From: an uncultured delta proteobacterium
Lineage (GTDB): Bacteria; Desulfobacterota; Desulfobaccia; Desulfobaccales; 0-14-0-80-60-11
Length of the DNA stretch: 64,000 bases
Assembly: GCA_963739295.1 (NCBI GenBank)
Contig: CAVTZS010000009.1
Span: 45,948 to 109,947, forward strand
Direction: 5' to 3'
Part shown: positions 2,773 to 55,015 of the stretch, in pieces
Numbering within the stretch: the first letter of the stretch is position 1
Layout of the letters: each line of letters begins with the position of its first letter
Translations under genes and position numbers: made by a program
Notes under the pieces: model-generated
The model's input: the letters and a program-made list of their open reading frames with translations, nothing else
The model's database searches: none
What the model was told of the DNA's origin: nothing

Positions 2773-2823
2773 TAATAAATATTGGACTGTCATAATCTTT
2801 GAAATAAGGGTTAAAAGAAACTC

Positions 2824-3126
2824 ATGAATAAATATGAAGAAGTTAAATCAGTTGTCTACGGTGCAATTGATGAACTAAATGAACAGTTATTGGAAGAGCA
2901 ACGGATAGAAAAATCCATGGATACCGTTCTCTTAGGAAGGCAGTCGAACCTGGATTCCATGGCTCTGGTTAATCTCATCATTATTGTGGAAGAGAAGATA
3001 GTGAACCAATTTGGGGTGAATTTTACATTGGTGGATGAGCGGGCGATGTCTGAGGAGGAAAGCCCCTTCAAAACTACGAGGACTTTAGTGGATTATATTT
3101 CAAAGATGCTTGAGGAAGTTAAATAA
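2824..3126 (+). CDS. acyl carrier protein
   Basis: 100 aa, acidic. Phosphopantetheine attachment motif LDSMALVNL (DSM). Sits between the KAS III and SDR genes. Confidence 0.8.
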   Translation: MNKYEEVKSVVYGAIDELNEQLLEEQRIEKSMDTVLLGRQSNLDSMALVNLIIIVEEKIVNQFGVNFTLVDERAMSEEESPFKTTRTLVDYISKMLEEVK

Positions 3127-3827
3127 TGGATACAAATAATGTTATGTTAATCACAGGGACAAGCAAGGGTATTGGAAAATACCTTGCCCATTACTACATT
3201 GAGCGTGGGTTTCAGGTAATTGGATGTAGCAGGAGCCTGGCTGATTATAATTTTGAGAATTACAGGCATTTTTGTTTGGATATAACTGATGAGAAAAAAG
3301 TCAAGGAAATGTTTTCTGCAATTTCCAAAGATTATGGTCGATTAGAAGTGCTCATAAATAACGCTGCAATTATGGCCACTAATCATGCACTTCTTACACC
3401 ACTTCTTACAGCCCAGGATATTTTAAATGTTAATGTTGGGGGAACTTTCTTATTATGTCGTGAGGCTGCCAAGATAATGCGAAAGAATAATTTCGGGCGA
3501 ATAATAAATTTCACCTCTATTAGTAGTATCTTAAAAGTCGAAGGGGAAAGCATCTATGCTGCTTCCAAGGCTGCAGTCGTCACCCTATCACAAATATTAG
3601 CAAGGGAGTTGGCAGCATTTAATATTACGGTAAATGTGGTAGGTCCCAATCCCATTCAAACGGATATATTAGCTTCCCTTTCCCAGAATAAAATCCAAGA
3701 GGTTGTTAACCGCCAGGCAATTAAGCGATATGGCGAATTTCGCGACGTTTCAAATGTGATTGATTTCTTCATAAAACCGGAGAGCGATTTTATTACGGGC
3801 CAAGTTATATTTCTAGGAGGAATTTAA
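3126..3827 (+). CDS. SDR-family oxidoreductase (FabG-like ketoreductase)
   Basis: 233 aa. Rossmann motif ITGTSKGIGKYLA, NNAA, catalytic YAASKAAV. The ATG overlaps the ACP stop codon (TAATG). Confidence 0.85.
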   Translation: MDTNNVMLITGTSKGIGKYLAHYYIERGFQVIGCSRSLADYNFENYRHFCLDITDEKKVKEMFSAISKDYGRLEVLINNAAIMATNHALLTPLLTAQDILNVNVGGTFLLCREAAKIMRKNNFGRIINFTSISSILKVEGESIYAASKAAVVTLSQILARELAAFNITVNVVGPNPIQTDILASLSQNKIQEVVNRQAIKRYGEFRDVSNVIDFFIKPESDFITGQVIFLGGI

Positions 3828-12198: not shown

Positions 12199-14616
12199 CT
12201 AAGGTTTTTTCGTCCCGGGCAAACTCTCCAGCAGTTTCTCGGCTGCGGCTCGCTCCGGGAACCCCGCTTTAAAGGCCAGGGCCTTCTGCAGGGATTCCCG
12301 GGCGGTTTCTGGTTCACCCAATTTGGCCGCACACCAACCCAAATGATAGAGAGATGATGGGTGGTCGGGCAACTTCGCTATCGACTGTTCCAGATAGGTC
12401 TTGGCTTGGGCAAATTTACCTTGCTTGCAAAGGACCCAGCCCATAGTGTCCAGCAAATTGGCATCCTCAGGGAATTCCTCCACCGATTCAGAGATTAGTT
12501 TCTGGGCCTTATCCAGATTTTCTGGGGTGGGAAGGTGGTCGGCCAACAAGTAGGCCAGATTATTGCGAGCTAAATTCGGAAAAAGGCCACGGGATAGCAG
12601 GGTGTTGTAAACGGCCATGGCCTTATCAAATTTTTGCTGTTGCTCGTAGAGCATGGCCAAAATCAAGAAATAAACGGGGGGAGTTTTGGGATCTGCCACC
12701 CGTGCTTCTAGCTGCTGGGTGACCGCATCCCGATCAGGTAACTGTCGATACGCATAGGTCAACAGCCATAGAATAGTTGGGTTGGGATTGAGAGCGATAG
12801 CCCCTTCCAGGGCCGGGATAGCCTCCTGCGGATGCTTTTGAGATAAGAGAAGTTCGCCCAGCAGCAGATGGAGTTGAGGATTCTGGGGATTGTGGGCCAG
12901 GCTCTGGCGCACAACCTCCAGGGCTTTGTCAGGACGCTTTTGCTCCAGGTGTACGGCAACTATCTGTTGGAGGGCAGGCAAAAAGTTGGGCTGCTTGCTC
13001 AGGGCCGTCTCAAAATGCTTGAGAGCCTGGTCCGGCTGCCTTTGTTTCCAGCTTAGAAGTCCCAGTTTGTAGTAACCCAGCGGGTTCTGAGGCTCCAAAG
13101 CGATAATTTTTTGGAACGTGCTCCGGGCCTGGCCATAGTCACCTTTTTGCGCATAGACGTCTCCCAGGGCATTTAGGTTGAGAATATCTTTCTCGTTAAA
13201 CCGGAGATAACCTTTAATGGTCTGGATGGCCCCATCGTAATCTTTAGCCTGGAGATAGAGACCATAAAGGAATTTTCTGGCATCCAGGTAGTCGGCTTTC
13301 AGCTCCAGGGCCTTCTTGGCCTTTTCCTTGGCCAGCTCTGGTTCTTTATTTAGCAGGTGGGCCCGGGCCAGCAGCAGCCAGGTCTCTGCGTTCTGAGGCT
13401 GATCCTGGGTGATAATCCGAAAACTGCTAACCGCCTTCAGACCGTCTTTTTTGGCCAGGGCTATCAGTCCCTGGTTCAGGGTAGCTTGCATATCTTTGGG
13501 ATTGTCCTTGAGAACCTCGTTCACCAGTTTTTCGCTTTCCTCCAGGAGGCCCCGGGATAGGCGAAGGCGGGCCAATTGATTCTTGGCTTGCATTCCCTTA
13601 GGGCCATTGGGGTCCTTGGCAATAATCTCCTGGAGGACCTTCACCCCTTTCCCTTCCCTTCCCGAGCCGAGGTAGAACTCGGCCAGGGCAAAGCGGGCAG
13701 GAAAATTATCCGGATGTTGATTAACAAAATCCTGTAGAGTCTGCTCCGCCTCTTTGGGGCGCCTTAGCCGGGTGAGGAAGCGGGCCAGGTCCACGGCGTG
13801 AGTTTCTTTATCGGGCTCCAAACTCAGGTTGTGGCGCAGGGCCTGCTCCGCCTTGTCCCATTGTTGTGCCAAAATATAATGACGGGGGAGTTCTGCCTGG
13901 AGTCTGGGATTTTTGGGTTCCAGTTCAACCGCCTTAAGCAGAGCGGCCTCGCCCTGGTCAAACTGCTTTTGGTTGTCTGCCAGGTGGGCCTGGGCAATGT
14001 ATAGGTCCAGGGCTTTGGGATTAGCCTTTAGTCCAGCCGCTAAAGTAGCTGCCGCAGCTTCAGGTTGTTTTTGATTGGCCTCGATGCTGGATTGCATTAG
14101 ATAAGCAACGATCTTGCCAGGGTCCAGGCGCCGCACCTCTGCCAGGAGATCTAAGGCCTTCTGAGGCTGTTGCCGGGCCAGGGCTAGGGAGGCCGCCAGG
14201 AGCCAGGCATCGGGATTTTTAGGTTCTTGCTCAAGGGCCAGTTTTACCTTGGCTTCGGCGTCATCCGGTCTTCGAGCCAACAGCAGGATTTGGCCCAGGA
14301 GGATTTGGGCTTCGGTCAAGTCGGGCTTCAGTGTCGCCGCCTGGGTCAGGTTCCCATAGGCATTTCGGGGGTTGTTTAACCTGAGCTCTGCCTTTCCCAG
14401 CCAGAGATACGCCTCGGCCCATTTGGGGTCAATTTGTATGGCATTTCTGAATTCCAACCTGGCCCCAATGAAATCTCCCTTCTGGTACAGATCTTTCCCA
14501 TGCGCGACGAACTTGTCCCGTTTCTCCTCCATGGTGGCACAGCCGAACAGATATATGACCGTTAAAAGTAAGGCCAATCGTAACACAACGTTTCGACGCC
14601 GCAAATTTTCCAGCAT
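12199..14616 (-). CDS. TPR-repeat lipoprotein, PrsT-like (PEP-CTERM/exosortase-system type)
   Basis: 805 aa. Signal peptide with lipobox (LTVIYLFGC), then TPR repeats along the whole length (...AEAYLWLGKAELRLNN..., ...GDYGQARSTFQKIIALEPQNP...). Confidence 0.75.
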   Translation of the reverse strand: MLENLRRRNVVLRLALLLTVIYLFGCATMEEKRDKFVAHGKDLYQKGDFIGARLEFRNAIQIDPKWAEAYLWLGKAELRLNNPRNAYGNLTQAATLKPDLTEAQILLGQILLLARRPDDAEAKVKLALEQEPKNPDAWLLAASLALARQQPQKALDLLAEVRRLDPGKIVAYLMQSSIEANQKQPEAAAATLAAGLKANPKALDLYIAQAHLADNQKQFDQGEAALLKAVELEPKNPRLQAELPRHYILAQQWDKAEQALRHNLSLEPDKETHAVDLARFLTRLRRPKEAEQTLQDFVNQHPDNFPARFALAEFYLGSGREGKGVKVLQEIIAKDPNGPKGMQAKNQLARLRLSRGLLEESEKLVNEVLKDNPKDMQATLNQGLIALAKKDGLKAVSSFRIITQDQPQNAETWLLLARAHLLNKEPELAKEKAKKALELKADYLDARKFLYGLYLQAKDYDGAIQTIKGYLRFNEKDILNLNALGDVYAQKGDYGQARSTFQKIIALEPQNPLGYYKLGLLSWKQRQPDQALKHFETALSKQPNFLPALQQIVAVHLEQKRPDKALEVVRQSLAHNPQNPQLHLLLGELLLSQKHPQEAIPALEGAIALNPNPTILWLLTYAYRQLPDRDAVTQQLEARVADPKTPPVYFLILAMLYEQQQKFDKAMAVYNTLLSRGLFPNLARNNLAYLLADHLPTPENLDKAQKLISESVEEFPEDANLLDTMGWVLCKQGKFAQAKTYLEQSIAKLPDHPSSLYHLGWCAAKLGEPETARESLQKALAFKAGFPERAAAEKLLESLPGTKKP

Positions 14617-14855: not shown

Positions 14856-15710
14856 TCAGGAAGTGGGTACGTTCCTTTTCCAGCGAGGGGCTGAGACCTT
14901 AACTTCCGGTTTGGCAATCTTCCAGTGCGGCGGGGGAACCTTCCATTTTAGCCCGGAGTCCCTGGGTGGGGGGCTCGAATTCTCACCCGAGGTTAAGAAA
15001 TTACGGGAGGCCAGCTTTAATCCTCTCAGGCTTTGCGGCTCGCCCGAATAATCTCGGATGACCGCGGCTACATAATTCAGCGTTTCGGGAAATGGCGGGC
15101 ACCCTTGATATTTAACCACATTCTCCGGGCCGGCGTTGTACGCGGCCAGGGCCAGGATGATATCCTGGTTAAACTGGCTCAGGCATATCTGGAGGTACTT
15201 AACGCCTCCGGCGATATTTTGTTCCACATCAAAAGGGTCACGCACTCCCAACAGGGCCGCGGTATCAGGCATAAGCTGCATCAGACCCATGGCGCCCTTG
15301 GGGGACACCGCCCCTGGATTGAAGCCCGACTCCTGGCGCATCACCGCCCACACCAGGTTTTCATCCACCCTGTGCAAACGGGCATATTTCCTGATAACCT
15401 GCTCTAATCTCTGAACTCCCGGGGAACTGGCAATCCAGGCCGGCTTCCCGGCAGCCTTGAATGAACGGGATGGGGCCACAGGATTCCACAACCTTGAGAA
15501 ATTTTCAAGGGCGAGTTGGGGGCGGGCTTGAGGGGCGCTTGAGCCGGAGTCTCCTGAAAGGAGTTGAGGCGTAGCATCTTCCTTGAGGCTCGGGGAGCTA
15601 TTGGGAGAGACGCTGGGGGTCAACGTTTGGCGGCCAGGTGGGGCCAGGAGCAGCAAGACCCCCAGGCACCCTAAGCCTAGCCACCTGATCATCCGCCATT
15701 CCTTAACCAT
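14856..15710 (-). CDS. lytic transglycosylase (SLT domain), secreted
   Basis: 284 aa. N-terminal signal sequence and a low-complexity S/P linker. SLT catalytic block VWAVMRQESGFNPGAVSPKGAMGLMQLMPDTA and AYNAGPENV. Confidence 0.85.
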   Translation of the reverse strand: MVKEWRMIRWLGLGCLGVLLLLAPPGRQTLTPSVSPNSSPSLKEDATPQLLSGDSGSSAPQARPQLALENFSRLWNPVAPSRSFKAAGKPAWIASSPGVQRLEQVIRKYARLHRVDENLVWAVMRQESGFNPGAVSPKGAMGLMQLMPDTAALLGVRDPFDVEQNIAGGVKYLQICLSQFNQDIILALAAYNAGPENVVKYQGCPPFPETLNYVAAVIRDYSGEPQSLRGLKLASRNFLTSGENSSPPPRDSGLKWKVPPPHWKIAKPEVKVSAPRWKRNVPTS

Positions 15711-15980
15711 CTACCTTTACTCACTGAGGACACCGGTTGTTGGACCGTGTCAGTAGATCGTTTAGCCCTGGAGGGTGCCCATCAAGGGAGGGTCTCACCT
15801 GAAGAGCCCGCTTTTGGGCAGCTATTTACGCTCCGGGGCCTAGTCCAGGCAGCAGGTTCTTAAACGATAATTACTATTGCCTAATAGTGCAACCGTTTTA
15901 GTGAAAAGGTCCCCTCCAGGAAGGTGGGGGGAGGCTGAGAATGATTATGAGATTTGGGCTAGGAAGCCTCTCAGGTTAAT

Positions 15981-16018
15981 AAAAAAGCCGGGCGTCCGCT
16001 TTCATAGGCAACCCGGCT
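15981..16018 (-). terminator. intrinsic terminator / expression platform of the riboswitch
   Basis: Minus strand reads AGCCGGG-(19 nt)-CCCGGCU followed by UUUUU. The 5' arm (16018-16012) is also the 3' strand of the aptamer's second helix. Confidence 0.6.
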
Positions 16019-16082
16019 ATCTCTCAGATCACTGAGACCCGTAGCTTTCCGTCCCCACCTTGCGATGGGTTTGGCTTTTTCT
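16005..16082 (-). promoter_or_regulatory. c-di-GMP-I (GEMM-I) riboswitch aptamer
   Basis: Minus-strand RNA: AGAAAAAGCCAAACCCAUCGCAAGGUGGGGACGGAAAGCUACGGGUCUCAGUGAUCUGAGAGAUAGCCGGGUUGCCUAUG. It aligns block for block with my recollection of the Vibrio Vc2 aptamer: GCAAACC; a GNRA-capped hairpin (here CCCAUC-GCAA-GGUGGG); GGGACGCAAAGCC; a second hairpin; UAGCGGGGUUACC. Vc2 G21/C46 are swapped to C/G here, which is compensatory. Confidence 0.7.
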
Positions 16083-16090
16083 AATAGATG

Positions 16091-16120
16091 ATAATAGCAT
16101 AATTTAAAGGACATTGTCAA
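16091..16120 (-). promoter_or_regulatory. sigma70-type promoter driving the riboswitch leader
   Basis: Minus strand: TTGACA (16120-16115), 18-nt spacer, TATTAT (16096-16091). The aptamer begins about 8-10 nt downstream. Confidence 0.55.
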
Positions 16121-42778: not shown

Positions 42779-44671
42779 ATGTTGGACCGTCAAAAGATCT
42801 GCCATATAGATTTAGCCAAAGAAGAAAGTAAAGAAGAAGATATTACCGATGAATTGCGTTCTCAGTTTCTTGGTGGCAGAGGTATCAATATTTATCTTCT
42901 CTATACTCACACTACCTCTCAAACAAAAGCTCTTGATCCGGACAACCCCCTGATTGTCGGCGCTGGCTTACTTTCCGGTACTCCCGCTCCATGTGCTGCC
43001 CGCTGCTCCATCGCGGGCAAATCACCCGAGACAGGACTGTTGGGAGATTCAAATATCGGGGGGTTCTTTGCCGCCCAATTAAGGAAAACCGGCTATGACC
43101 ACCTATTGATTAAAGGGCAGTCACCCGAACCGATCTACATTTATTTAGAGAGAGGAAAAGTCGAAATCCGAGATGCTTCTCATCTATGGGGCAGAGATAC
43201 CTTAGAGACCATGAACTTCCTTAAGGAGGCGCATGGTAAATCAAGTGAATCCTTAGTGATCGGGCCCGCGGGAGAAAATCTGGTTAGGTTTGCTACAGTG
43301 AGGCATGGGAGGAAGAATACCGCGGGCAGAACCGGTCTCGGGTGTCTCATGGGGTCCAAGAAGGTTAAGGCTATCGTGGTCAAAGGAGACCGACCCCCGC
43401 TCCTGAAGTATCCCAAGGAGATGATCCCCTATTGCCGGGAGCTCACGCAAATCATTAAAGGAACCAGGACCACTGAAGTATTGCATCGCTACGGCACCCC
43501 GGTTCTCTTCGATTTGCATAACTTACGCGGCATTTTGAGAACCTTGAATGGCCAACTCAATCAGTTCCAAGAGGGACGCGGCTTAAGATCATCTCATCTT
43601 AAGACTTACTATACCAGGGCGAGCGGATGTTTTTCTTGTCCCATCAGATGCCAACATGGTTATAAGTTTCAAGATGGAGATAAGAGGGAGTTTGTTGGGG
43701 ACGGTTTGGAATATGGGGTAATTGGCGCCTTGGGACCAATCTGCGGCCTTAATAATTTGGCAAGTATTTTCGAAATTAATGATCTCCTTAATCGTTATGG
43801 GCTCGATGCCAGTTCTACGGGGAATATTATTGCCTGGGTGACGGAACTCTTTCAAAGGAGGATTATTACCGAAAGAGAGACTGGAGGATTATCATTAAAC
43901 TGGGGAGACGAAAAAGTTATTATTGAACTCATTAAACAAATGGTCGAGAGAAGGGGTTTTGGAAATTTACTGGCCCAGGGGGCAAAGGAGGCCTCAGAAA
44001 AATTAGGAGAGGCATCTAAAAAGTATTTAATCTGGTCCAAGTATCTTCCTCAGTCGGATTCGGTGGACTTAAGGGCCTATAGAGGATTCGCTCTGGGAGT
44101 TGCCACCTCTACCCGGGGAGCTGATCATTTGCGGAGTCGTCCTACCCTGGAGGCGCTGAATTTATCAAATGAGGAGTTACTCAAGGTCTACGGTAAGAGC
44201 GTCCCCAATGATCCCACCGCCTATCAAGAAAAGCCTTACATGGTCTGGTGGTCTGAGATTAATTTTGTTCTGGGAGACGCTTTGGGCATATGTCGATTTG
44301 CTCAGAAATTCAATAATATCAATCACCTGGGCATAGAGGAATTTTCCCAGTTAATTTATTACGCTACCGGGTTGTCTTTGTCATCGGAGGATCTTATCAG
44401 GATAGGAGAGAGAATTATAACCCTGGAAAGGATGTTTCTTAAGCGGGAGGGCATCGATCGGAGGAGCGATAGCCTCCCTGATAGATACTTCGATGAGCCT
44501 ATGCCCTCGGGACCGTTCCAGGGGGAGAGACTAGATCGGGATGCCTTTAACCAGATGTTAGATGATTATTATAGAATCCACCACTGGAATTTAGCTACGG
44601 GGAACCCCACGCCAGATGTAGTCAAGAGTTTAGGCTTGGCGGCGGTAGTGAAAGAGGAGGAAATGTGGTAA
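42779..44671 (+). CDS. aldehyde:ferredoxin oxidoreductase family (tungstopterin enzyme)
   Basis: 630 aa. N-terminal FLGGRGINIYLLY...DPDNPLIVGAGLLSGTPAP...SIAGKSPETG...IRDASHLWG. [4Fe-4S] ligands CFSCPIRC plus a later LGICRF. C-terminal DSLPDRYFDEPMPSGP. Confidence 0.9.
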   Translation: MLDRQKICHIDLAKEESKEEDITDELRSQFLGGRGINIYLLYTHTTSQTKALDPDNPLIVGAGLLSGTPAPCAARCSIAGKSPETGLLGDSNIGGFFAAQLRKTGYDHLLIKGQSPEPIYIYLERGKVEIRDASHLWGRDTLETMNFLKEAHGKSSESLVIGPAGENLVRFATVRHGRKNTAGRTGLGCLMGSKKVKAIVVKGDRPPLLKYPKEMIPYCRELTQIIKGTRTTEVLHRYGTPVLFDLHNLRGILRTLNGQLNQFQEGRGLRSSHLKTYYTRASGCFSCPIRCQHGYKFQDGDKREFVGDGLEYGVIGALGPICGLNNLASIFEINDLLNRYGLDASSTGNIIAWVTELFQRRIITERETGGLSLNWGDEKVIIELIKQMVERRGFGNLLAQGAKEASEKLGEASKKYLIWSKYLPQSDSVDLRAYRGFALGVATSTRGADHLRSRPTLEALNLSNEELLKVYGKSVPNDPTAYQEKPYMVWWSEINFVLGDALGICRFAQKFNNINHLGIEEFSQLIYYATGLSLSSEDLIRIGERIITLERMFLKREGIDRRSDSLPDRYFDEPMPSGPFQGERLDRDAFNQMLDDYYRIHHWNLATGNPTPDVVKSLGLAAVVKEEEMW

Positions 44672-46167
44672 CCCTGGTGGAAATGTTAGAAAAAAATGCC
44701 ATGAATATCCCCGATAAGGTGGCCATAATCCATCATGATCTGAGGATAACCTATGGCGAGCTAAATAATCAGGTAAATCGATTGGCCCATGCCTTATTAA
44801 GTCTAGGGCTGAAGAAGGAAGATCGGATCGGTTTAATGTTACCCAGGATACCTGAATTAGTTATTACTTTCCTGGCCGCGGCAAAAGCCCAAGGTATAGT
44901 GGCTCCAATAAATTTTGAATTAAATAGTAGAGAAATCACAGCTCTCTTAGAAAATCTTTCTCCGAGTTTTTTAATTATTCACGAATTTTTTCTTGACCTT
45001 GCGAAGAAGACTCTTCCCCAGAACCTGAAAATACCAGTTATTGTGGTGGGGAATAAATGTGACGATAATTTTTACTGCTGGGATGATATTTTAAAAGATC
45101 GTAATCAACATAACCTTTCTCTGGAAGTTAAAGAAGATGATGTAGTTTATCTTAATTACACTTCTGGAACCTCAGGGGCTCCTAAAGGCGCCATTACCAC
45201 CCATTCTAATATCTTATGGAATACCTTGGCGTCAGTGGAAACCTTGAAGCTTACCCCTGACGACATCCATTTGTGTATGTTTGCCCCCTTTGCGCATCCC
45301 CACGAGCTTTTTGCCAGGCCTCTCTATTTAGGGGGGACCTTCGTTTTGCTGGAAACGATAAGACCAAAGTCCATCGCCAGGAGCATCTCTGAAAATGAAG
45401 TTACCTGTTTAATGGCCATAGCCCCCATACTTATGACCCTCATGGAAATTGCCAGATCAGGCCAATATGACCTAAGTTCTTTAAGGATTCCAGAGAGTGG
45501 CGGAATGCACACCCGGGTAGAACTTATTAAGCAATTTGAGCAGAGATTTGGAGTACCTATTCTGCCGGTCTGGGGCAGCACCGAAACCACGGGTATAGCC
45601 ATTGCCAATTCCCCTGATAAAGGAGTGGTATACGGTTCGGTAGGAAGACCCTGCAAATCTTATGAGGTGAAGATTGTGGGCGAGGACGGGAAAGAATTGC
45701 CTCCTCATAAGACTGGAGATTTGATTTTCAGAGGACCAGGTATAGTTAGCGGATATTATAATAATAGCGGGAATCCGGATTCTTTTAAAAATGGCTGGTA
45801 TTTTAGTGGAGATCTGGCGAAGAAAGATGAGGAAGGCAATTTTTACTTTGTTGAAAGAAAAAGCGGAATGTTGAAGGTGGCGGGCCTCCAGGTTTATCCT
45901 TTGGAAATTGAGTTAACCCTATTGCGCCACCCTGCTATAAAAGAAGCTGCAGTAATTGGTGTCGAAGATAATCTGAGGGGTGAGGTACCTAAAGCCATAG
46001 TTGTCCCAAATAATGAACATAAGCTAAAAGAGAGAGAGATAATCCAGTATTGTCTGGATAATATGGCTCATTATAAAGTACCCCGGGTAATTGAGTTTCG
46101 GGAAGAGTTACCCAAGATAGGAAGCGGGAAAATTAATAAAAAGGCGCTAAAATTGGAGATAACATGA
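44665..46167 (+). CDS. AMP-dependent acyl-CoA/acyl-ACP synthetase (ANL superfamily)
   Basis: 500 aa. AMP-binding motif YTSGTSGAPKGA, WGSTET, GDL...DEEGNFYFVERKS, and a terminal GKINKK. The GTG start overlaps the AOR stop by 7 nt (AGGAGG 8 nt upstream); an alternative ATG lies at 44683. Confidence 0.88.
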   Translation: MVTLVEMLEKNAMNIPDKVAIIHHDLRITYGELNNQVNRLAHALLSLGLKKEDRIGLMLPRIPELVITFLAAAKAQGIVAPINFELNSREITALLENLSPSFLIIHEFFLDLAKKTLPQNLKIPVIVVGNKCDDNFYCWDDILKDRNQHNLSLEVKEDDVVYLNYTSGTSGAPKGAITTHSNILWNTLASVETLKLTPDDIHLCMFAPFAHPHELFARPLYLGGTFVLLETIRPKSIARSISENEVTCLMAIAPILMTLMEIARSGQYDLSSLRIPESGGMHTRVELIKQFEQRFGVPILPVWGSTETTGIAIANSPDKGVVYGSVGRPCKSYEVKIVGEDGKELPPHKTGDLIFRGPGIVSGYYNNSGNPDSFKNGWYFSGDLAKKDEEGNFYFVERKSGMLKVAGLQVYPLEIELTLLRHPAIKEAAVIGVEDNLRGEVPKAIVVPNNEHKLKEREIIQYCLDNMAHYKVPRVIEFREELPKIGSGKINKKALKLEIT

Positions 46168-47333
46168 AGGCTCTAGTAGTTGACTGCGAATGGAAACCTC
46201 GGGAAGGCTACACCTTAACCGAAGAGGAACGCCTTAACAAGAAAGCTTTCTCTGGCAGCCAGGTATGGAGAAATCCGCATTTCGAGATAAAGGAAGTCCC
46301 GACTCCCAATATAAATGACGACGAAGTTCTCATCAGAGTTAAGGCCTGTGGCATTTGCGGTTCCGATAGCCATCTCTATGAAACAGATAAAGAAGGCTAT
46401 ATTATCTTTTCTGGTCTAGTAAAACTACCCTGCATTTTGGGTCATGAGTTCTCTGGAATTGTTGAAGACGTTGGGGAAAAGGTGGCGAATTTAAAGGTTG
46501 GTGATGTAGTAGCGGTGGAAAGTATTCAATGGTGCGGTTTATGTACTTCCTGCCGCAGCGGCGCGCTAAACCAGTGCAGAAATATAGAGCTCATGGGGTT
46601 AAGTTCTAATGGGGCCTTTGCAGACTACATCGCCGTAAAAGAAAAGTACTGCTGGAAACTAAATAGCTTAAGAGAGCGTTACTCCCATGAAGAGATTTTT
46701 GAAATAGGAGCTCTGATAGAGCCTATTGGCTGTGGGTATAATGGCATATTCATAAGTGGTGAGGGCTTCAAGCCTGGCGAGACCATGGTGGTATATGGCC
46801 TGGGTCCCATTGGCCTAGCCTCCATTGCCTTGGCCAAAATTGCCGGAGCCAGCAAGATCATAGCCTTTGACAAACTTGCCCCGCGCTTGGAGTTAGCCAA
46901 AAGTATGGGGGCGGATTTCGTATTTAATATTGAAGGGTTAGTTAGTGAAAACTCTGGGCCTGGTTACAAGGTTCTGGAATTAACCCACGGGGAAGGAGCT
47001 GATATCCAAATAGAGGCAGCAGGTGATGCCCCGTACACCATTCCAGAGATGGAGAAGGCTACTGCCCCTAACGGAAGGATAATTTATCTGGGCCGGGCCC
47101 AAAGGTCTACTCCCATGTTCTTGGATGCCCTGGTTTCCGGCGCCAATAAAATTGTGGGTGCCCGGGGACACTCCGGATATGGGATATTTCCGAATATCAT
47201 CAGGCTTATTGCCTCGGGTAGACTTGAAGTTAGAGAAATGATTACTGCCAGATATCCCTTTGACAACGTCATAGAGGCGATAGAGAGGTCTTCGCAGAGG
47301 ATTGATGGAAAAATTATGATAAAGATGTCTTAA
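46164..47333 (+). CDS. zinc-dependent medium-chain dehydrogenase (sorbitol/threonine-dehydrogenase-like)
   Basis: 389 aa. GICGSDSHLY, GHEFSGIVEDVG, structural-zinc CGLCTSCRSGALNQC, and VVYGLGPIGLA. ATGA overlap with the ligase gene. Confidence 0.85.
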   Translation: MKALVVDCEWKPREGYTLTEEERLNKKAFSGSQVWRNPHFEIKEVPTPNINDDEVLIRVKACGICGSDSHLYETDKEGYIIFSGLVKLPCILGHEFSGIVEDVGEKVANLKVGDVVAVESIQWCGLCTSCRSGALNQCRNIELMGLSSNGAFADYIAVKEKYCWKLNSLRERYSHEEIFEIGALIEPIGCGYNGIFISGEGFKPGETMVVYGLGPIGLASIALAKIAGASKIIAFDKLAPRLELAKSMGADFVFNIEGLVSENSGPGYKVLELTHGEGADIQIEAAGDAPYTIPEMEKATAPNGRIIYLGRAQRSTPMFLDALVSGANKIVGARGHSGYGIFPNIIRLIASGRLEVREMITARYPFDNVIEAIERSSQRIDGKIMIKMS

Positions 47334-47372: not shown

Positions 47373-48842
47373 ATGCATATACTTCTCCTTAATCCGTCAT
47401 TCTTGAGCCAATATGGCAAATTTTCACGGGAACAGAGGAGTCCTGCTATTACCAAAAGTGGGACACTTTATTATCCCATGTGGCTTTCTTATGCCACAGG
47501 CGTTCTGGAAAAAAATGACTTCCACGCCACATTATTTGATTGCCCTGCTGATAATATCCAAACAAGTGATATAAAAGTATTTGTGAAAAACCATAAACCA
47601 CGCTTAGTAGTAATTGATACCAGTACACCCAGTATTTACGACGACCTGCAGATAGGTGAAATCATAAAGTCAATCAATCCAGATACCTTCATAGTACTTG
47701 TGGGTCCGCACGTTTCAGCACTTCCTGAGGATACCTTGAATTGTAGCCTAGACGTAGATGCGGTGGCAATGCATGAATATGAATACACCCTCTTAGATTT
47801 GGCCAATTCCCTCAAAAATAATACGGATTGGCGAAGCATTCCAGGGCTCTGTTATCGGGTCAATGGAAAGATTATAAGAAACCCCAAGAGAGAATTTATC
47901 AAAGATTTGGATTCCATACCTTTTGTGAGCTCCGTTTACAAAAGGCATCTCAATTACAAAAATTATTTCTACGCTCACAGCCGCTACCCCATCTTAACCA
48001 TAATCACCGGTAGGGGGTGCCCTTACCAATGTATCTACTGCGTCTATCCTCAAACTTTTAGTGGCCGAAAAGTACGATACCGAAGTATAGAAAATGTTGT
48101 GGAAGAAATCGAATTTATCTTAAAGGAGTTCCCAGATGTAAAGGAAGTGATGTTTGAGGACGATACCTTGACTCTTAATAAGAAGAGATGTTTTGAATTT
48201 GCTGAGGAAATTCTGAGACGAAACATTAGATTTAACTGGTCTGCCAATTCGAGAGCCGATGTTGATTTGGAAACCCTGAAGATTTTAAAACGGGCTGGAG
48301 CCAGACTCTTATGCGTGGGAATTGAAAGTGGGGATCAGTTGTTACTGGATAAAATGAAAAAGAATCTTAAATTGGAGCAGGTCAGGCAATTTTTTCAAGA
48401 CGCAAAAAAAGCGGGGATTTTGATTCATGGCTGTTTCTTAGTGGGAGTTCCCGGGGAGACGAAGGAAAGCTTGCAAAAAACTCTCTCCCTGGCAAAGGAA
48501 CTAAATCCCGATACCGCCCAATTCTTTCCGATAATGGTTTATCCTGGTACCGAAGCTTACCACTGGGCCCAGGAGCAAAATTATTTAATAACCAATGACT
48601 TTCGCCAGTGGGTTACTGAAGATGGATTGCATAATTGTGTGATAAGCCGGCCAGGCCTTAGTAATAAAGATTTAGTGGAATTTTGTGATAACTCCAGGAG
48701 AGAATTTTACCTGAGACCTTCTTATATCACTAAAAAGATAATGATGAGCCTTACAAGCTATCATGAGTTTAAAAGGCTAGTTAAAGGAGCTCGATCATTG
48801 TCAAAATTTATTCTTAGAGGAACTACTCAAAGGGAAGGTTAG
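47373..48842 (+). CDS. B12-binding-domain radical SAM protein
   Basis: 489 aa. N-terminal cobalamin-binding-like domain (ILLLNP...VVIDTSTPS...VGPHVSALPE). Radical SAM CX3CX2C in GRGCPYQCIYCVYP. Confidence 0.85.
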   Translation: MHILLLNPSFLSQYGKFSREQRSPAITKSGTLYYPMWLSYATGVLEKNDFHATLFDCPADNIQTSDIKVFVKNHKPRLVVIDTSTPSIYDDLQIGEIIKSINPDTFIVLVGPHVSALPEDTLNCSLDVDAVAMHEYEYTLLDLANSLKNNTDWRSIPGLCYRVNGKIIRNPKREFIKDLDSIPFVSSVYKRHLNYKNYFYAHSRYPILTIITGRGCPYQCIYCVYPQTFSGRKVRYRSIENVVEEIEFILKEFPDVKEVMFEDDTLTLNKKRCFEFAEEILRRNIRFNWSANSRADVDLETLKILKRAGARLLCVGIESGDQLLLDKMKKNLKLEQVRQFFQDAKKAGILIHGCFLVGVPGETKESLQKTLSLAKELNPDTAQFFPIMVYPGTEAYHWAQEQNYLITNDFRQWVTEDGLHNCVISRPGLSNKDLVEFCDNSRREFYLRPSYITKKIMMSLTSYHEFKRLVKGARSLSKFILRGTTQREG

Positions 48843-48944
48843 GCACTAATTAACCTTATTTCTGATCTTCTCAATAATCTGAGCAGAGAGGACAGTCACC
48901 GCTTGCCTGACTCCGGGGAGAGCCAGAGCGCATAATTTAGGGTA

Positions 48945-49925
48945 ATGATGATTTCAGTGGTCATACCTGCTCATAATGAGGAAAAAACTATCGGCAATTG
49001 TCTAAAAGGTTTAATAACGCAAACCATTGACAAAGATAAATACGAAATAATTGTGGTAGACGACGGCTCAACAGATAATACATCCAATATCGTAAGTAAT
49101 TTTCGCGGGGTCAGGCTAATCAGGCAAAATAATCAAGGGCCGGCTGCCGCAAGGAATAAAGGAGCCCAAGAAGCAAAGGGAGAAATTATTTTATTTACTG
49201 ATTCAGATTGTGTCCCTTTCGATAATTGGATTGAAGAGATGGTAAGACCTTTTGACCCAAATTCTGAAGTAGTTGGCGTCAAAGGTGCCTACGAGACAAA
49301 CCAGAGAGAATTAATAGCTCGTTTCGTGCAAATCGAATATGAAGATAAATATGATAAATTAAAAAAGCAAACCTACATTGATTTTATCGACACTTACGCA
49401 GCAGGCTTTAGGCGGAATGTTTTTCTTCAAGCCAATGGATTTAATATGGAATTCCCGATAGCCTGTGCTGAAGATGTAGAACTATCTTACCGTTTAGCAA
49501 ACCGCGGCTATAAAATGGTATTTAACCCGAAGGCCAAAGTGAGTCATTTGCACCCAAGATCCCTTATGGATTATGTAAAGAAGAAATATAAATTTGCATA
49601 TTGGCGGATGTTAGCGATAAAGAAACATCCTAATAAGATATTGAACGATACACATACCCCTCAATCGATGAAAATTCAATTATTGTTCATTCCCTTTCTG
49701 GTAGCTTCTTTTGCTTTTCTTTTTCTTTCTCCAATATCTCTAAAAATAATAATTTCCTTATTAGTTTTATTTTATTTAACAACAATCCCTTTTATCATAA
49801 AAGCAGTAAGAAGGGACTTTGCTATAGGGGTCTTATCACCTTTTTATCTTCTCGTAAGGTCCAGCTCCCAATTTTTGGGAGTAACTAAAGGATTGATGGA
49901 CAACTTATTAAAAATTAAGAAATAA
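48945..49925 (+). CDS. family 2 glycosyltransferase with C-terminal TM segments
   Basis: 326 aa. SVVIPAHNEE, VVDDGSTDNT, and FTDSDC (DxD). Confidence 0.85.
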   Translation: MMISVVIPAHNEEKTIGNCLKGLITQTIDKDKYEIIVVDDGSTDNTSNIVSNFRGVRLIRQNNQGPAAARNKGAQEAKGEIILFTDSDCVPFDNWIEEMVRPFDPNSEVVGVKGAYETNQRELIARFVQIEYEDKYDKLKKQTYIDFIDTYAAGFRRNVFLQANGFNMEFPIACAEDVELSYRLANRGYKMVFNPKAKVSHLHPRSLMDYVKKKYKFAYWRMLAIKKHPNKILNDTHTPQSMKIQLLFIPFLVASFAFLFLSPISLKIIISLLVLFYLTTIPFIIKAVRRDFAIGVLSPFYLLVRSSSQFLGVTKGLMDNLLKIKK

Positions 49926-49941
49926 TTCTGACGTAAAATCA

Positions 49942-50538
49942 ATGTTTAAAAGATCGTTGGATATTATTTTAGCTACCTTTGGGCTGATATTTTTTTCACC
50001 CATTTTTATATTATGTAGTATAATAATATACTTTGGATCACCTGGGCCAATATTCTTTAGGCAAGAAAGATTGGGTAAGGATGGTAAGACTTTCAAAATC
50101 ATAAAATTTAGAACAATGGCAAAAAATGCGGAAAAGATTGTGAGGAACGATCCAGAATTGTACAATCTGTATAAAAAACAATACAAAATCCCCGAGGAAC
50201 AAAATTCATTAATGACTCCTTGGGGGAAAATCATGCGTAAAACCAGTATGGATGAACTACCTCAATTGTTTAATATTTTGAAGGGCAATATGAGTATTGT
50301 AGGGCCCCGGCCGATAGTGCCGGAGGAGATTATGGAATACGGAGCACATGGCCAGAAATTCCTTTCCGTAAAACCAGGGTTAACTGGATATTGGCAGGTT
50401 TCCGGAAGAAATCTGGTAGGCTACCCCCAAAGGGTCTTTTTAGATATGTATTACATCGATCATCAGTCCTTCTGGCTTGATCTTCAAATTATCTTGAAGA
50501 CCTTTCCGGTGGTATTAAAAATGAGAGGCACTCATTAG
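49942..50538 (+). CDS. small monotopic sugar phosphotransferase (PglC/WecA-unrelated 'bacterial sugar transferase' family)
   Basis: 198 aa. KRSLDIILATFGLIFFSPIF...GSPGPIFFRQERLGKDGKTFKIIKFRTM...DELPQLFNILKGNMSIVGPRP. Confidence 0.88.
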   Translation: MFKRSLDIILATFGLIFFSPIFILCSIIIYFGSPGPIFFRQERLGKDGKTFKIIKFRTMAKNAEKIVRNDPELYNLYKKQYKIPEEQNSLMTPWGKIMRKTSMDELPQLFNILKGNMSIVGPRPIVPEEIMEYGAHGQKFLSVKPGLTGYWQVSGRNLVGYPQRVFLDMYYIDHQSFWLDLQIILKTFPVVLKMRGTH

Positions 50539-50788
50539 ATACAATTTCGTAAAGAGATTCCAAAGCATCTTTTACGTCATCTATTAAATTTAAAGCTGCC
50601 TGCGCATAAGATAAATTCAGCTAATATTCCGGTTCTGGCATAAATCCAATAAGAACCAGAGGAGATGCCATTTTCGGTGAAGGTTTCGAGTTAGAGAGAA
50701 TTGTCGATTCGGGTTTGAAGGCTGCCGCTACCTCCTATCTGCCAGCACCACGGTCTCCAGTTTTAACTTATCCCGGGAAATGGTTTGA

Positions 50789-51832
50789 ATGGAGATGATA
50801 ACGGACTCCAGGTTGGTTCCCACTGGCTCTTTGGCCCTGGCCCTAGTTGAGTTGGCGCGGGATTGCCGCCGCTGGTGCTATTGGTACCCCTGGCGGCGTT
50901 TGGTTCAGGTTCTGCCTCATCCCACCCGGCTGGCTGTGGCCCGTGTTCTAGGAAGCCTGTTCTATTGGTCCTCCCCTGCCTGGCGAACCATAACTATGTC
51001 CGAGCTGGACGCCAGCTTTCAACATTGCCCCCCACCTCAGGCCTTTTCGCGCCTGAGCCAATGGGGGGCCAGGCAATTCTACCAGTATCAGCTGGAAGTC
51101 TTTGCCTATCCTTGTCTTAAGCCCAGGGAGATGGAAAAATACTTTCCCCTTGAGGGTCAAAAGCACCTGGACCACGCCCAGCGCCAGGGCCGGGGAGTAT
51201 TGATCCTTCTGTCGCATCTGGGGGCCAATCAAATGATTATGCCGGCCCTGGGTTATCGGGGCTACCACCTCCACCAGATTAGCCGGCCGGCCCGGGCCGA
51301 TAACGATGAGTATGCCGGCCGGCGACTATCCCCTTGTTTCTTGAAAATCATCAATCTCCAGCGCTCCTATGAAGAGTCTTTGCCAGCCCAGCATATCGAT
51401 GTCACCCGGGGCCTGCTGCCAGCGTTTCGCAAGCTAAAGGCCAATGGCATGGTGGCCGTGGCTGGAGATGGCCGTTACGGGTCCGACTGGACGCCGCACC
51501 CTTTTTTAGGGCGGCCCGCCACCTTTTCCCCCGGTCCCTGGCTCATCGCCCATCGCACCGGGGCACCGGTGCTGCCCACTTTTGTCTTGCGGCCCATCCG
51601 CGGGAATATTTATCGAGTGATTATTGAACCGCCGTTGCCCTTGCCCTACGGGGCCGCGATTGAGGAATTTCTGGCTGCTGGCCTGGAGGCTTACATTGGC
51701 CGGCTGGAAGAGTATTTCTATCGCTATCCCTGGCAATACGTGCCGTTTCTGTATCTGGCCCGGCGCTACACCCAAGGCCGGGAAAACCAGTTTTTTCTGG
51801 ATTACCCCTCCGGGGAGATGCCTCAGCCCTAG
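50789..51832 (+). CDS. LpxL/HtrB-like acyltransferase family protein (paralog of 39356..40378)
   Basis: 347 aa. Alignable by eye with the 39356 protein (YPWRRLVQVLPHP vs YPFRWLTRFLPVP; GRGVLILLSHLGANQ vs GRGVILIHAHFGISQ). Confidence 0.65.
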   Translation: MEMITDSRLVPTGSLALALVELARDCRRWCYWYPWRRLVQVLPHPTRLAVARVLGSLFYWSSPAWRTITMSELDASFQHCPPPQAFSRLSQWGARQFYQYQLEVFAYPCLKPREMEKYFPLEGQKHLDHAQRQGRGVLILLSHLGANQMIMPALGYRGYHLHQISRPARADNDEYAGRRLSPCFLKIINLQRSYEESLPAQHIDVTRGLLPAFRKLKANGMVAVAGDGRYGSDWTPHPFLGRPATFSPGPWLIAHRTGAPVLPTFVLRPIRGNIYRVIIEPPLPLPYGAAIEEFLAAGLEAYIGRLEEYFYRYPWQYVPFLYLARRYTQGRENQFFLDYPSGEMPQP

Positions 51833-52087
51833 GCTTTCCCTTGAGACTTCCGAATTTTATCCAGTCTTCTTGGATCGGCCCTGTTGGCAAGTAAATTTTT
51901 TTATATAATAATTCTTAAATTGCCCACCCCACCAGGGGGTGATAGGACTGACTTTGGAGAAATCTCCGGTTAAAGGGAATCTGCAGAGAGGAGATCCTAA
52001 ACTTTATTCTTTTTCCTGCTTTTGGCCCTTGGATGGAAGCTTTGAATCAAGACGAAAACTGCTAAAGGAAGCAACTTCGGGAGTCCT

Positions 52088-53662
52088 ATGCGTGTTCTGC
52101 TGATTCGCCCTCCGTATTCCCGCCTCCGGGGAACTGGCCATCCGGCCTATTTCCCTTTGGGCTTGGGTTATCTGGCCGCGGTCTTGGAGGAGGCGGGATT
52201 TGAGGTAAGTATTTATAACATGGAGCTTGAGGCCAGCCCTGGCAGAACCGAGATTATCAACGACGCCGAGGCCACCTTTTATCAGCGCTCTCAGGAACAG
52301 AAACGCTATTATCAGGCCGTGGCCCAAGATGACCTCCCGGTCTGGAAGGAACTGCAAGGAGTCTTAAATAGCTATAAGCCGGATCTGGTAGGGGTTACCC
52401 TGCTGTCCCCGGAAGTAGCCTCGGCCCGCAAGGTCTCTCAAATAGTCAAAGCCTGGCGGCCAAATTGTTGGGTGATCTGGGGGGGTAACCACCCCACCTT
52501 TCTGCCGGTGGAGTGCCTGGCCTATCCCGAGGTCGATATTGTCGGCCGAGGCGAAGGAGAATACACCCTACTGGAGGTGTCCCAGCGCCTGTCGAAGGGC
52601 CAGGGCCTCAGCGGGGTGGAGGGCATATCCTTCAAATCCAATGGGGATGTCTGTCATAACCCTAACCGCGCCCTGATTCAGAATTTAGATGAGATTCCTT
52701 TCCCGGCCAGGCATCGGCTATTATTCTATGACGAGTTTGACCACAAAAATCTAGGTTGTATGATCATCACCCGGGGCTGTCCCTGGCGTTGCGCTTTTTG
52801 CTCCTCCCGCAATTTCTGGGAGAAAAGAGTTCGATTCCGCTCCGCGGACAATGTGGTGGCCGAACTGCGTCAATTTCAGCAGACTTACGGCATCCGCTTC
52901 ATTATGTTCTGGGACGATTCCTTCAGCATCAATCGGGATATTGTCTGGCAGTATTGTCAGGCGATAATCGACAGCGGCATAGAAGTCATGTGGCGCACCG
53001 CCACTCGGGCCGACCTGGTGACCGAAGAACTGCTGCCTTGGATGAAGCGGGCCGGCTGCACCAAATTGGAGATCGGGGTCGAGACCGGCTCCCCCCGCAT
53101 ACAACGTTTGATTCACAAGGATATTGACAATGCCGACGTGGTCCGGGCCTTCAAGTTGCTAAAAAAAGGGGGTATCCCCGCCGGGGCCTTTTTTATGGCT
53201 GGATTTCCGGAGGAGACCATCGATGACTTGCAGCAGACTTTTGAGCTGATGAAATCCATCCCCTGCCTGGAGATCGCCTTCAACATTTTTGATCCCATGC
53301 CCGGCAGTGAACTTCTGGATACCTGTCAGAACTTAGGGCTGGTTTCGCCTCATCCCGATTGGAGCAATTTCTTGTTCTGGCCTGATAGTCACTTTATGAA
53401 ATACGTCAGCCCGGAAGAGTTTAACCGGCAGGCCTATGCCATGGCAGCCTGGATCTTTGCCCATAATAATCGCTGGATCAATCTGTTGCTCAAACAGGGC
53501 TACTTGGCTTGGTTTCTCCTGAGAAACGACCCCCGATTCCTATTTAAAAAGATCCTCCAGCGATTGAAAAAACGCCTCCAGGTACAGTTCTTGAAAAAAA
53601 CTACAGCCACTTGCCCAGCCGAGACCTTTTGCCTGCCCGGCGGGAGCAGGGAAAGAAAATAG
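52088..53662 (+). CDS. B12-binding-domain radical SAM protein
   Basis: 524 aa. MRVLLIRPPY...FPLGLGYLAAVLEEAGFEV and WGGNHPTF. CX3CX2C in TRGCPWRCAFCSS. Confidence 0.85.
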   Translation: MRVLLIRPPYSRLRGTGHPAYFPLGLGYLAAVLEEAGFEVSIYNMELEASPGRTEIINDAEATFYQRSQEQKRYYQAVAQDDLPVWKELQGVLNSYKPDLVGVTLLSPEVASARKVSQIVKAWRPNCWVIWGGNHPTFLPVECLAYPEVDIVGRGEGEYTLLEVSQRLSKGQGLSGVEGISFKSNGDVCHNPNRALIQNLDEIPFPARHRLLFYDEFDHKNLGCMIITRGCPWRCAFCSSRNFWEKRVRFRSADNVVAELRQFQQTYGIRFIMFWDDSFSINRDIVWQYCQAIIDSGIEVMWRTATRADLVTEELLPWMKRAGCTKLEIGVETGSPRIQRLIHKDIDNADVVRAFKLLKKGGIPAGAFFMAGFPEETIDDLQQTFELMKSIPCLEIAFNIFDPMPGSELLDTCQNLGLVSPHPDWSNFLFWPDSHFMKYVSPEEFNRQAYAMAAWIFAHNNRWINLLLKQGYLAWFLLRNDPRFLFKKILQRLKKRLQVQFLKKTTATCPAETFCLPGGSRERK

Positions 53663-53672
53663 ACCTAGAGCA

Positions 53673-54980
53673 ATGAAAGTTCTGCTACTGCAGCCATACC
53701 TAGGCCGGCGGGAGCTTCCCATCTTTCCCTTAGGCCTGGCCTGCCTGGCAACCCATCTGCCGGAGCACGAACTGCAGTCCCTTGATCTGAACGTGACTTC
53801 CCAGCCCCGGGAAGCCCTGTCCCAGGCCCTTAAGACCTTTGGTCCTGAAGTAGTGCTGATCTCCTTGCGCAATGTTGACACCACCTGGTATGGCGACCCC
53901 TTTTATTATTTTCCCACCTTTCAGGATCAGGTTCGCCAGGTCCGGGCCGCGGCTCCGAAGGCGCGGATCATCGTGGGCGGCTCCGGCTTCAGCATCTTTG
54001 CCCGGGAAATCATGATCCGCACCCCGGAGATTGACCTGGGCGTCGTCGGGGAGGCTGAAGAGGTTATCGTCGACCTGCTGACCCAGCCATTAACCCTTCC
54101 CAATGTTCTCTACCGGGAAGAAGCCGCCTTGGGGGGGAGCGCCCGGGCGGGCATTTCCTCTTTGGAGCATTATCTCCCTCCCCGCTATGATCTTTTCCCC
54201 CTGGGACCATATTTAAATAACCCCATAGGGGTGGGAGTGGAGACCAAAAGAGGTTGTCCCTTAACCTGTTCCTATTGTACCTATCCCCATCTAAACGGTC
54301 AGCGCTTCCGTCTCATCCGGCCGTCGGTTATCGTCAGCCTGTTGGGTGAACTTAAGGAGCGGCACGGGGTAACGAGATTTACCTTTACTGATTCCATCTT
54401 TAATATGCCCCGGGCTCATGCGGAAAAGGTGCTCCAACTGCTTATTGCCGCCAAACTGGGGCTTAAGTGGGAGGCCTACTTCCATGAGAGCCATTTTGAC
54501 GCGGACTTCTTAAACTTGAGCCTAGAGGCGGGTTGCGACAAATTCTGGTTTTCCCCGGATGGGCTTACCTCCCATGCTTTGCGGGCCCTGGGAAAAGAGC
54601 AAACTGCCGCGGAAGTCAGGCGGACCTGGCGTTTGGTCACCGCCAGGAAAGAAGTTAGCTCCAATTTCAGTTTCTTTTGGCAATATCCCGGAATGCGTTG
54701 GCGGGACTTTGGGGCCCTGGTGAGCTTTTACCTGTGGCATCGCCTCCACGGCCGCCAGGGCACGGTCATAACTTTTAACAAAATTCGCATCGAACCTGGG
54801 ACTTCCATTAGAGCCCAAGCGGTGGCCGAGGGATTGATCGGGGCTGATGACCCCCTTTTGCCAAGGCAACCCTCTGAGATGCTGGGAATGTTTTATCACC
54901 AGCCGCGGCCTGGATTTATCGATTGGAGTTATGATTTGTTACTGATGTTAAAGCGGTGCCACTTAGCTAACTCTCCATGA
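53673..54980 (+). CDS. B12-binding-domain radical SAM protein
   Basis: 435 aa. MKVLLLQPY...FPLGLACLATHL and VGGSGFSIF. CX3CX2C in KRGCPLTCSYCTYP. Confidence 0.8.
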   Translation: MKVLLLQPYLGRRELPIFPLGLACLATHLPEHELQSLDLNVTSQPREALSQALKTFGPEVVLISLRNVDTTWYGDPFYYFPTFQDQVRQVRAAAPKARIIVGGSGFSIFAREIMIRTPEIDLGVVGEAEEVIVDLLTQPLTLPNVLYREEAALGGSARAGISSLEHYLPPRYDLFPLGPYLNNPIGVGVETKRGCPLTCSYCTYPHLNGQRFRLIRPSVIVSLLGELKERHGVTRFTFTDSIFNMPRAHAEKVLQLLIAAKLGLKWEAYFHESHFDADFLNLSLEAGCDKFWFSPDGLTSHALRALGKEQTAAEVRRTWRLVTARKEVSSNFSFFWQYPGMRWRDFGALVSFYLWHRLHGRQGTVITFNKIRIEPGTSIRAQAVAEGLIGADDPLLPRQPSEMLGMFYHQPRPGFIDWSYDLLLMLKRCHLANSP

Positions 54981-55015
54981 GGCGGCTTTTTTCTTTGTTA
55001 AGGGCCTAAAGGGAC

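Follow-up and report, generated by a model that had tools for sequence, protein, structure and literature searches.

A predicted c-di-GMP-I riboswitch with a dedicated promoter and a terminator overlapping the aptamer, upstream of a lytic transglycosylase gene in an uncultured Desulfobaccales relative

In Geobacter, many GEMM-Ib riboswitches switch transcription on by way of a terminator that overlaps the aptamer. In the c-di-GMP-I aptamer Vc2, the ligand contacts are G20, A47 and C92 (PMC5888326, PMC4744006), and in Methylophaga nitratireducenticrescens GP59 c-di-GMP riboswitches were described upstream of PEP-CTERM genes at an exopolysaccharide locus (PMC12530212). A link between a GEMM riboswitch and a lytic transglycosylase was not found in the literature searched, an absence that applies to that search alone. 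In this study, we analyzed a 64-kb stretch of DNA (the window) from an uncultured Desulfobaccales relative, and we consider it very likely that its minus strand carries a canonical c-di-GMP-I riboswitch, equipped with a promoter of its own and with a terminator that overlaps the aptamer, acting as an ON control of an SLT-domain lytic transglycosylase gene and possibly of prsT.

Rfam cmscan returned a single gathering-level match in the 64 kb, at 16003-16084 on the minus strand, to the model RF03167 (c-di-GMP-I-GGC) of clan CL00126, with 74.7 bits against a cut-off of 59 bits, an E-value of 6.9e-16 and a span of model positions 1-80 of 80. A second, lower-scoring CL00126 model was also above its own cut-off at the same place. 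The original prediction, which had assigned this RNA to the GEMM-I / c-di-GMP-I class, is supported by the clan match; its further expectation of a significant match to RF01051 (cut-off 35 bits) held at the clan level only, the top model being RF03167, which outscored RF01051. The sequence blocks on which it had relied (AAAGCCAAACC, CCCAUC-GCAA-GGUGGG, GGGGACGGAAAGCU, UCUCAG-UGAU-CUGAGA and AUAGCCGGGUUGCC), together with the terminator AGCCGGG...CCCGGCU-U6 and the promoter TTGACA-18-TATTAT, were all recovered on the minus strand, and the aptamer core pattern occurred once in the window against 0.00 expected occurrences.

The consensus lines of RF01051, RF03167 and RF03168 served to assign the positions. 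On this mapping, P1 is formed by 16083-16081 with 16007-16005; P1a consists of the pairs C16074-G16049 and C16073-G16050, followed by 16069-16064 with 16059-16054, and is closed by the GNRA loop GCAA at 16063-16060; and P1b is formed by 16046-16034 with 16023-16010. For the UCUCAG/CUGAGA hairpin the letters are present, but comparison across the family prefers the register GUCUC/GAGAU for distal P1b. Both nucleotides of the inter-helix pair (Vc2 C44-G83) are present as C16051 and G16017, and their pairing is predicted from the sequence. Adjacent to G20 and the binding pocket, the exchange proposed at Vc2 positions 21-46 proved real: C16074 pairs with G16049 where Vc2 has G21-C46, so that the pair is kept by a two-sided swap, and this is the sole departure near the pocket.

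The flipped C21-G46 subtype is common and widespread. A pattern scan of metagenome contigs, in which the C-G flip was fixed and positions 20, 47 and 92, P1, P1a and distal P1b were left free, found it on at least 120 contigs. The matches listed, including the window and L001, a closed MAG chromosome, gave a set of 135 aptamers. Among these, position 47 was A in 135/135, position 20 was G in 132 and A in 3, and the junction was GCC in 109. The three aptamers with A20 (L075:810-890(-), L107:1889-1969(+) and L083:3964-4049(-)) are candidate 3'3'-cGAMP-type variants. Tandem arrays of 3-5 aptamers, 15-100 nt apart, were also seen in L050 (558-1013, -), L080 (1001-1359, -) and L103 (106-495, +), with no terminators between the aptamers and each array upstream of a single gene.

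For the covariation analysis, 128 distinct homologues among the matches listed were aligned and scored against the expected structure. In this alignment, 94.4% of the cells were paired, compared with 81.3% in shuffles and 27-51% when the pairing partners were slid, and the covariation score was 0.389 against 0.136 after shuffling, with none of 500 shuffles as high. Changes on both sides occurred in 10 pairs, and the four P1a pairs each took 4-6 standard pair types. P1a and upper P1b are therefore strongly backed by covariation. In the same 128 homologues the G and A positions of the GNRA loop were invariant, and so were the nucleotides of the inter-helix pair, corresponding to C16051 and G16017, in 128/128.

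The names of the clan models correspond to Vc2 positions 20/47/92, a logic that we derived from the three consensus lines: G/A/C in RF01051, whose consensus reads ...aG/GC...GC/A...UgCC, U/A/U in RF03168 and G/G/C in RF03167. The ligand-contact equivalents in the window are G16075 (G20), A16048 (A47) and C16008 (C92), that is, the canonical G/A/C site of c-di-GMP aptamers without the GGC signature. This combination predicts c-di-GMP over cGAMP as the ligand, in line with what had been proposed from the G at the G20 position. The c-di-GMP-I-UAU type (RF03168) does not fit, with G16075 and C16008 standing in place of U20 and U92.

That the window should hold a true c-di-GMP-I-GGC variant with altered ligand recognition, as its best clan model (74.7 bits, cut-off 59) would propose, appears very unlikely, since the variant is defined by G47 in Vc2 numbering (position 37 of the model, with an upper-case consensus letter), where the window has A16048, and A47 is found in all 135 aptamers of the subtype among the matches listed. 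Moreover, 20 metagenome loci of the same subtype, all with A47, were split between RF03167 (most), RF01051 (61-69 bits) and RF03168; because aptamers with one and the same A47 are divided in this way, the GGC label seems to arise because the clan models compete with one another, a competition that is probably driven by overall sequence similarity. Slightly less probable still is that the aptamer senses 3'3'-cGAMP in the manner of GEMM-Ib. The cGAMP riboswitches belong to the same fold family and were described from Geobacter, which also belongs to the former Deltaproteobacteria, and three aptamers of the subtype among the matches listed do have A20. However, A20 is reported to be the main determinant of cGAMP selectivity (Kellenberger 2015, Nelson 2015), and the c-AMP-GMP type is contradicted by G16075 at this position, where 132 of the 135 listed aptamers also have G. 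For annotation, this means that the best CL00126 match gives no statement on the ligand-binding nucleotides, and that canonical G/A/C aptamers routinely carry GGC or UAU variant labels in Rfam.

Upstream of the c-di-GMP-I aptamer, a sigma-70-type promoter is predicted at 16120-16091 on the minus strand, with the -35 box TTGACA (16120-16115), a spacer of 18 nt, an extended -10 TG (16099-16098) and the -10 box TATTAT (16096-16091), giving 11/12 matches to the consensus in addition to the TG. The pattern TTGACA-N16-18-TAWWAT matched once in 64 kb against 0.11 expected, so that the promoter assigned to this unit is near-consensus and unique in the window. It ends approximately 6-7 nt upstream of the 82-nt aptamer, and transcription would be expected to start near 16085-16083. 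The -35 hexamer is kept in the relative L151. Between the promoter and a divergent MBL-fold gene, the segment 16121-16319 is 82% identical to L151 over approximately 185 nt, and the MBL-fold gene itself is 93.7% identical between the two.

Downstream, RNAfold found an intrinsic terminator at 16018-15981 on the minus strand, in which an 8-bp stem with 6 G-C pairs joins 16018-16011 (AGCCGGGU) to 15993-15986 (GCCCGGCU) and is followed by a U tract at 15986-15981 (U6). The hairpin has a free energy of -16.8 kcal/mol and is also present in the centroid structure. A simple terminator scanner missed it, apparently because the 17 nt between the arms exceed its loop limit of 3-8 nt. The 5' arm lies inside the aptamer and takes up 6 of the 7 nucleotides of the lower P1b 3' strand together with the conserved AG bulge, whose G belongs to the inter-helix pair. 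The claimed identity of the terminator 5' arm with the aptamer 3' strand (AGCCGGG) is thus borne out, and because the strand is shared, the aptamer and the terminator are mutually exclusive. By secondary structure alone, the terminator conformer reaches -33.0 kcal/mol and the aptamer conformer -19.5 kcal/mol; termination is therefore taken as the default state, the terminator conformer being 13.5 kcal/mol more stable. These folds point to a transcriptional ON switch, as the original prediction had inferred, which is presumably under kinetic control because just 17-22 nt or so lie between the end of the aptamer and the U tract. Against the ON model stands the large and imperfect loop, with 17 nt between the 8-bp arms and only 2 internal pairs, and the terminator of the window is weaker than that of many homologues.

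Among the matches listed, 132 family members had enough downstream sequence to be compared. The overlapping terminator design was found in 51 of them (approximately 40%), a separate downstream hairpin in 34 and no simple terminator in 45. All three units of L001 have the overlapping aptamer-terminator design. An alternative platform, GCCGAAGCAAAAGAAAUUUUGC...CCCGUGG...CCACGGGCUUUUU, lies downstream of the aptamer in L033, L037, L042, L051, L052, L092, L097, L125, L133, L145 and others; there, the 5' arm of the terminator is complementary to the 5' strand of P1b, and this suggests that an OFF-type design also occurs in the C21-G46 subtype.

The first gene downstream of the riboswitch, at 14856-15710 on the minus strand, encodes an SLT-domain lytic transglycosylase (Pfam PF01464, 3.3e-30) of 284 aa with a hydrophobic N-terminus. 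Most of its homologues have no informative name; those that do are annotated as soluble lytic murein transglycosylase-like or as lytic transglycosylase domain-containing protein. An exact-protein look-up found no identical protein on record. The next gene (12199-14616, minus strand) encodes the XrtA/PEP-CTERM system TPR-repeat protein PrsT of 805 aa, with 337.9 bits on TIGR02917, above the curated equivalog cut-off of 312.2. Both genes had been named correctly beforehand. Other genes of the window encode nucleotide-sugar enzymes, priming sugar transferases and a polysaccharide deacetylase of the XrtA system that scores above the TIGR03006 cut-off; convincing PEP-CTERM proteins were not found in the 64 kb. 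Control of PrsT by the riboswitch is plausible, and it is uncertain because the SLT-PrsT spacer of 239 nt is poorly conserved and because the relative L150 keeps the riboswitch and SLT with no PrsT in the approximately 480 nt that follow SLT. Elsewhere in the window, at 47373-56395 on the plus strand, 4-5 B12-binding radical-SAM genes (HpnJ-like, BzaD-like and TIGR04072-like, all below curated cut-offs) are clustered together with glycosyltransferase and priming sugar-transferase genes, with an acyl-CoA ligase and a scyllo-inosose dehydrogenase-like gene just upstream (44665-47333); this cluster may serve an unusual modification of lipids or polysaccharides.

The nearest genomes were Desulfobaccales/Desulfobacca-type MAGs with an SLT identity of 50-63%, and three closer relatives, L149, L150 and L151, were retrieved through the SLT protein. 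L151 (SLT 76% identical at the amino acid level) has the same order as the window, namely the divergent MBL-fold gene, the promoter, the aptamer (77.5 bits), the terminator, the leader and SLT. The contig of L150 (80%) starts inside the aptamer, and from there on the aptamer, the terminator, the leader and SLT are kept, while that of L149 (96%) starts just before SLT and keeps PrsT. DNA identity to L151 is 92.5% for the aptamer, 90.9% for the rest of the terminator, 88.3% for the leader, 85.2% for the SLT coding sequence and 69.6% for the SLT-PrsT spacer. The terminator arms and the U tract are kept in L150 and L151, and the loop varies. Within the L151 aptamer, the P1 pair U16083-A16005 is changed to C-G, which is compensatory, and G16038-U16019 is changed to G-C.

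SLT-PrsT synteny extends to L001-L007 and L149. On the plus strand, the L001 chromosome has three complete units of the C21-G46 subtype (1083-1157, 1506-1583 and 1685-1762). After them come two genes, 2041-2730 and 2788-3528, each for a protein with a C-terminal PEP-CTERM signal, and then SLT and PrsT. In the more distant L002-L007, which keep SLT-PrsT, no riboswitch was found even at E <= 0.1; for this reason, the riboswitch-SLT link is real but lineage-specific. When the first downstream ORF was tallied for the 135 aptamers listed, most were spurious short ORFs, and within that limit no SLT gene was seen downstream of other metagenome aptamers among the matches listed. A test for PEP-CTERM tails was used instead, and these were present in 9 of 95 complete downstream ORFs of the metagenome set (among the matches listed).

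A non-coding leader of 270 nt (15711-15980, minus strand) separates the terminator from the start codon of SLT. Its identity is 88.3% to L151 and 89.6% to L150, compared with 85-87% for the SLT coding sequence and approximately 70-73% for the SLT-PrsT spacer, so that the leader is conserved at least as strongly as the SLT coding sequence. A conserved small ORF was considered for the leader and is ruled out by single-base indels between the relatives. The fold z-score of the leader is -1.8, and its Rfam search gave chance-level matches only (Hrs1 on the plus strand, E 0.036, and NEAT1). Scans for a sigma-54-like site were negative for both the leader and the SLT-PrsT spacer, and the minus strand of the leader showed no additional sigma-70 site. 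The leader could carry a second promoter or regulatory element, which would make SLT partly independent of the switch. As a more speculative proposal, to which we give a rather low probability, the leader might be a second, undescribed cis-regulatory RNA and, separately, the C21-G46 subtype might differ from the Vc2 type in affinity or kinetics; were the former true, SLT would integrate c-di-GMP with another signal.

The conserved leader also bears on what the unit produces. Bdellovibrio merRNA, a c-di-GMP sponge, is the model for a reading in which the unit mainly makes a terminated RNA of approximately 105 nt that acts alone, for example as such a sponge, with SLT transcribed from a promoter inside the leader. 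The promoter, aptamer and terminator do form a self-contained cassette, three such cassettes lie 100-420 nt apart in L001, at least two of them with their own TTGACA box, and the unusually conserved leader could conceal a promoter. We nevertheless regard this as improbable, since the minus strand of the leader showed no second consensus site for sigma-70 or sigma-54, the cassette, the leader and SLT remain together in L150 and L151, and an overlapping aptamer and terminator is a classical cis-acting design. It is far less probable again that the switch of the window works as an OFF switch, or at the level of translation. Other members of the subtype do appear to have the separate downstream terminator whose 5' arm complements the 5' strand of P1b and which is probably of OFF type, but the only hairpin with a U tract in the window uses the 3' strand of the aptamer itself, so that ligand binding would exclude termination, and the ribosome-binding site is 270 nt away from the aptamer.

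Considering transcriptional ON control of SLT as the preferred reading, we have proposed a probable model for this locus. Transcription would start from the promoter at 16120-16091 on the minus strand, and the first 82 nt or so of the transcript would fold as a class-I c-di-GMP aptamer. When c-di-GMP is scarce, AGCCGGGU (16018-16011) would pair with GCCCGGCU (15993-15986) to form the terminator which, with its U6 tract, would stop transcription near 15981. When c-di-GMP is bound, the strand 16018-16011 would be held in P1b and in the C16051-G16017 contact, the terminator would be blocked, and RNA polymerase would read through the 270-nt leader into the SLT gene and possibly prsT. In this way, an XrtA/PEP-CTERM exopolysaccharide locus would have one of its enzymes, which opens peptidoglycan locally, coupled to the high-c-di-GMP (biofilm) state. 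The lytic transglycosylase, and perhaps PrsT, of such a locus would thus join the predicted direct targets of c-di-GMP, with an uncultured Desulfobaccales relative as the host, and control of SLT by c-di-GMP would fit the general link between c-di-GMP and the biofilm matrix.

Compared with described systems, the locus resembles that of strain GP59 in its setting. As there, a c-di-GMP riboswitch of the window is predicted inside a PEP-CTERM/exopolysaccharide neighbourhood, and L001 and 9 of 95 units (among the matches listed) pair the riboswitch with PEP-CTERM genes; unlike in GP59, the next gene in the window is the SLT transglycosylase and then PrsT, not a gene for a PEP-CTERM substrate protein. 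With the c-di-GMP-I-GGC type (RF03167) the aptamer shares its top covariance-model score of 74.7 bits, its overall length and the short P1b, but it is without G47 (A16048), and the pair 21-46 is C-G instead of G-C. The c-AMP-GMP riboswitches (GEMM-Ib) of Geobacter have the same fold, and the host of the window is also a former deltaproteobacterium; in contrast, A20 in theirs is G16075 in the window. Like Vc2 of Vibrio cholerae (RF01051), the aptamer of the window folds into two hairpins, with a short P1 and with a GNRA tetraloop capping P1a, and it keeps G20, A47, C92 and the inter-helix C-G nucleotides. Unlike Vc2, it has C-G for G21-C46 and a shorter distal P1b, the platform is predicted to be a transcriptional ON terminator and the regulated gene a lytic transglycosylase. 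Therefore, the riboswitch class is already known, and the window represents a further example of the common C21-G46 subtype.
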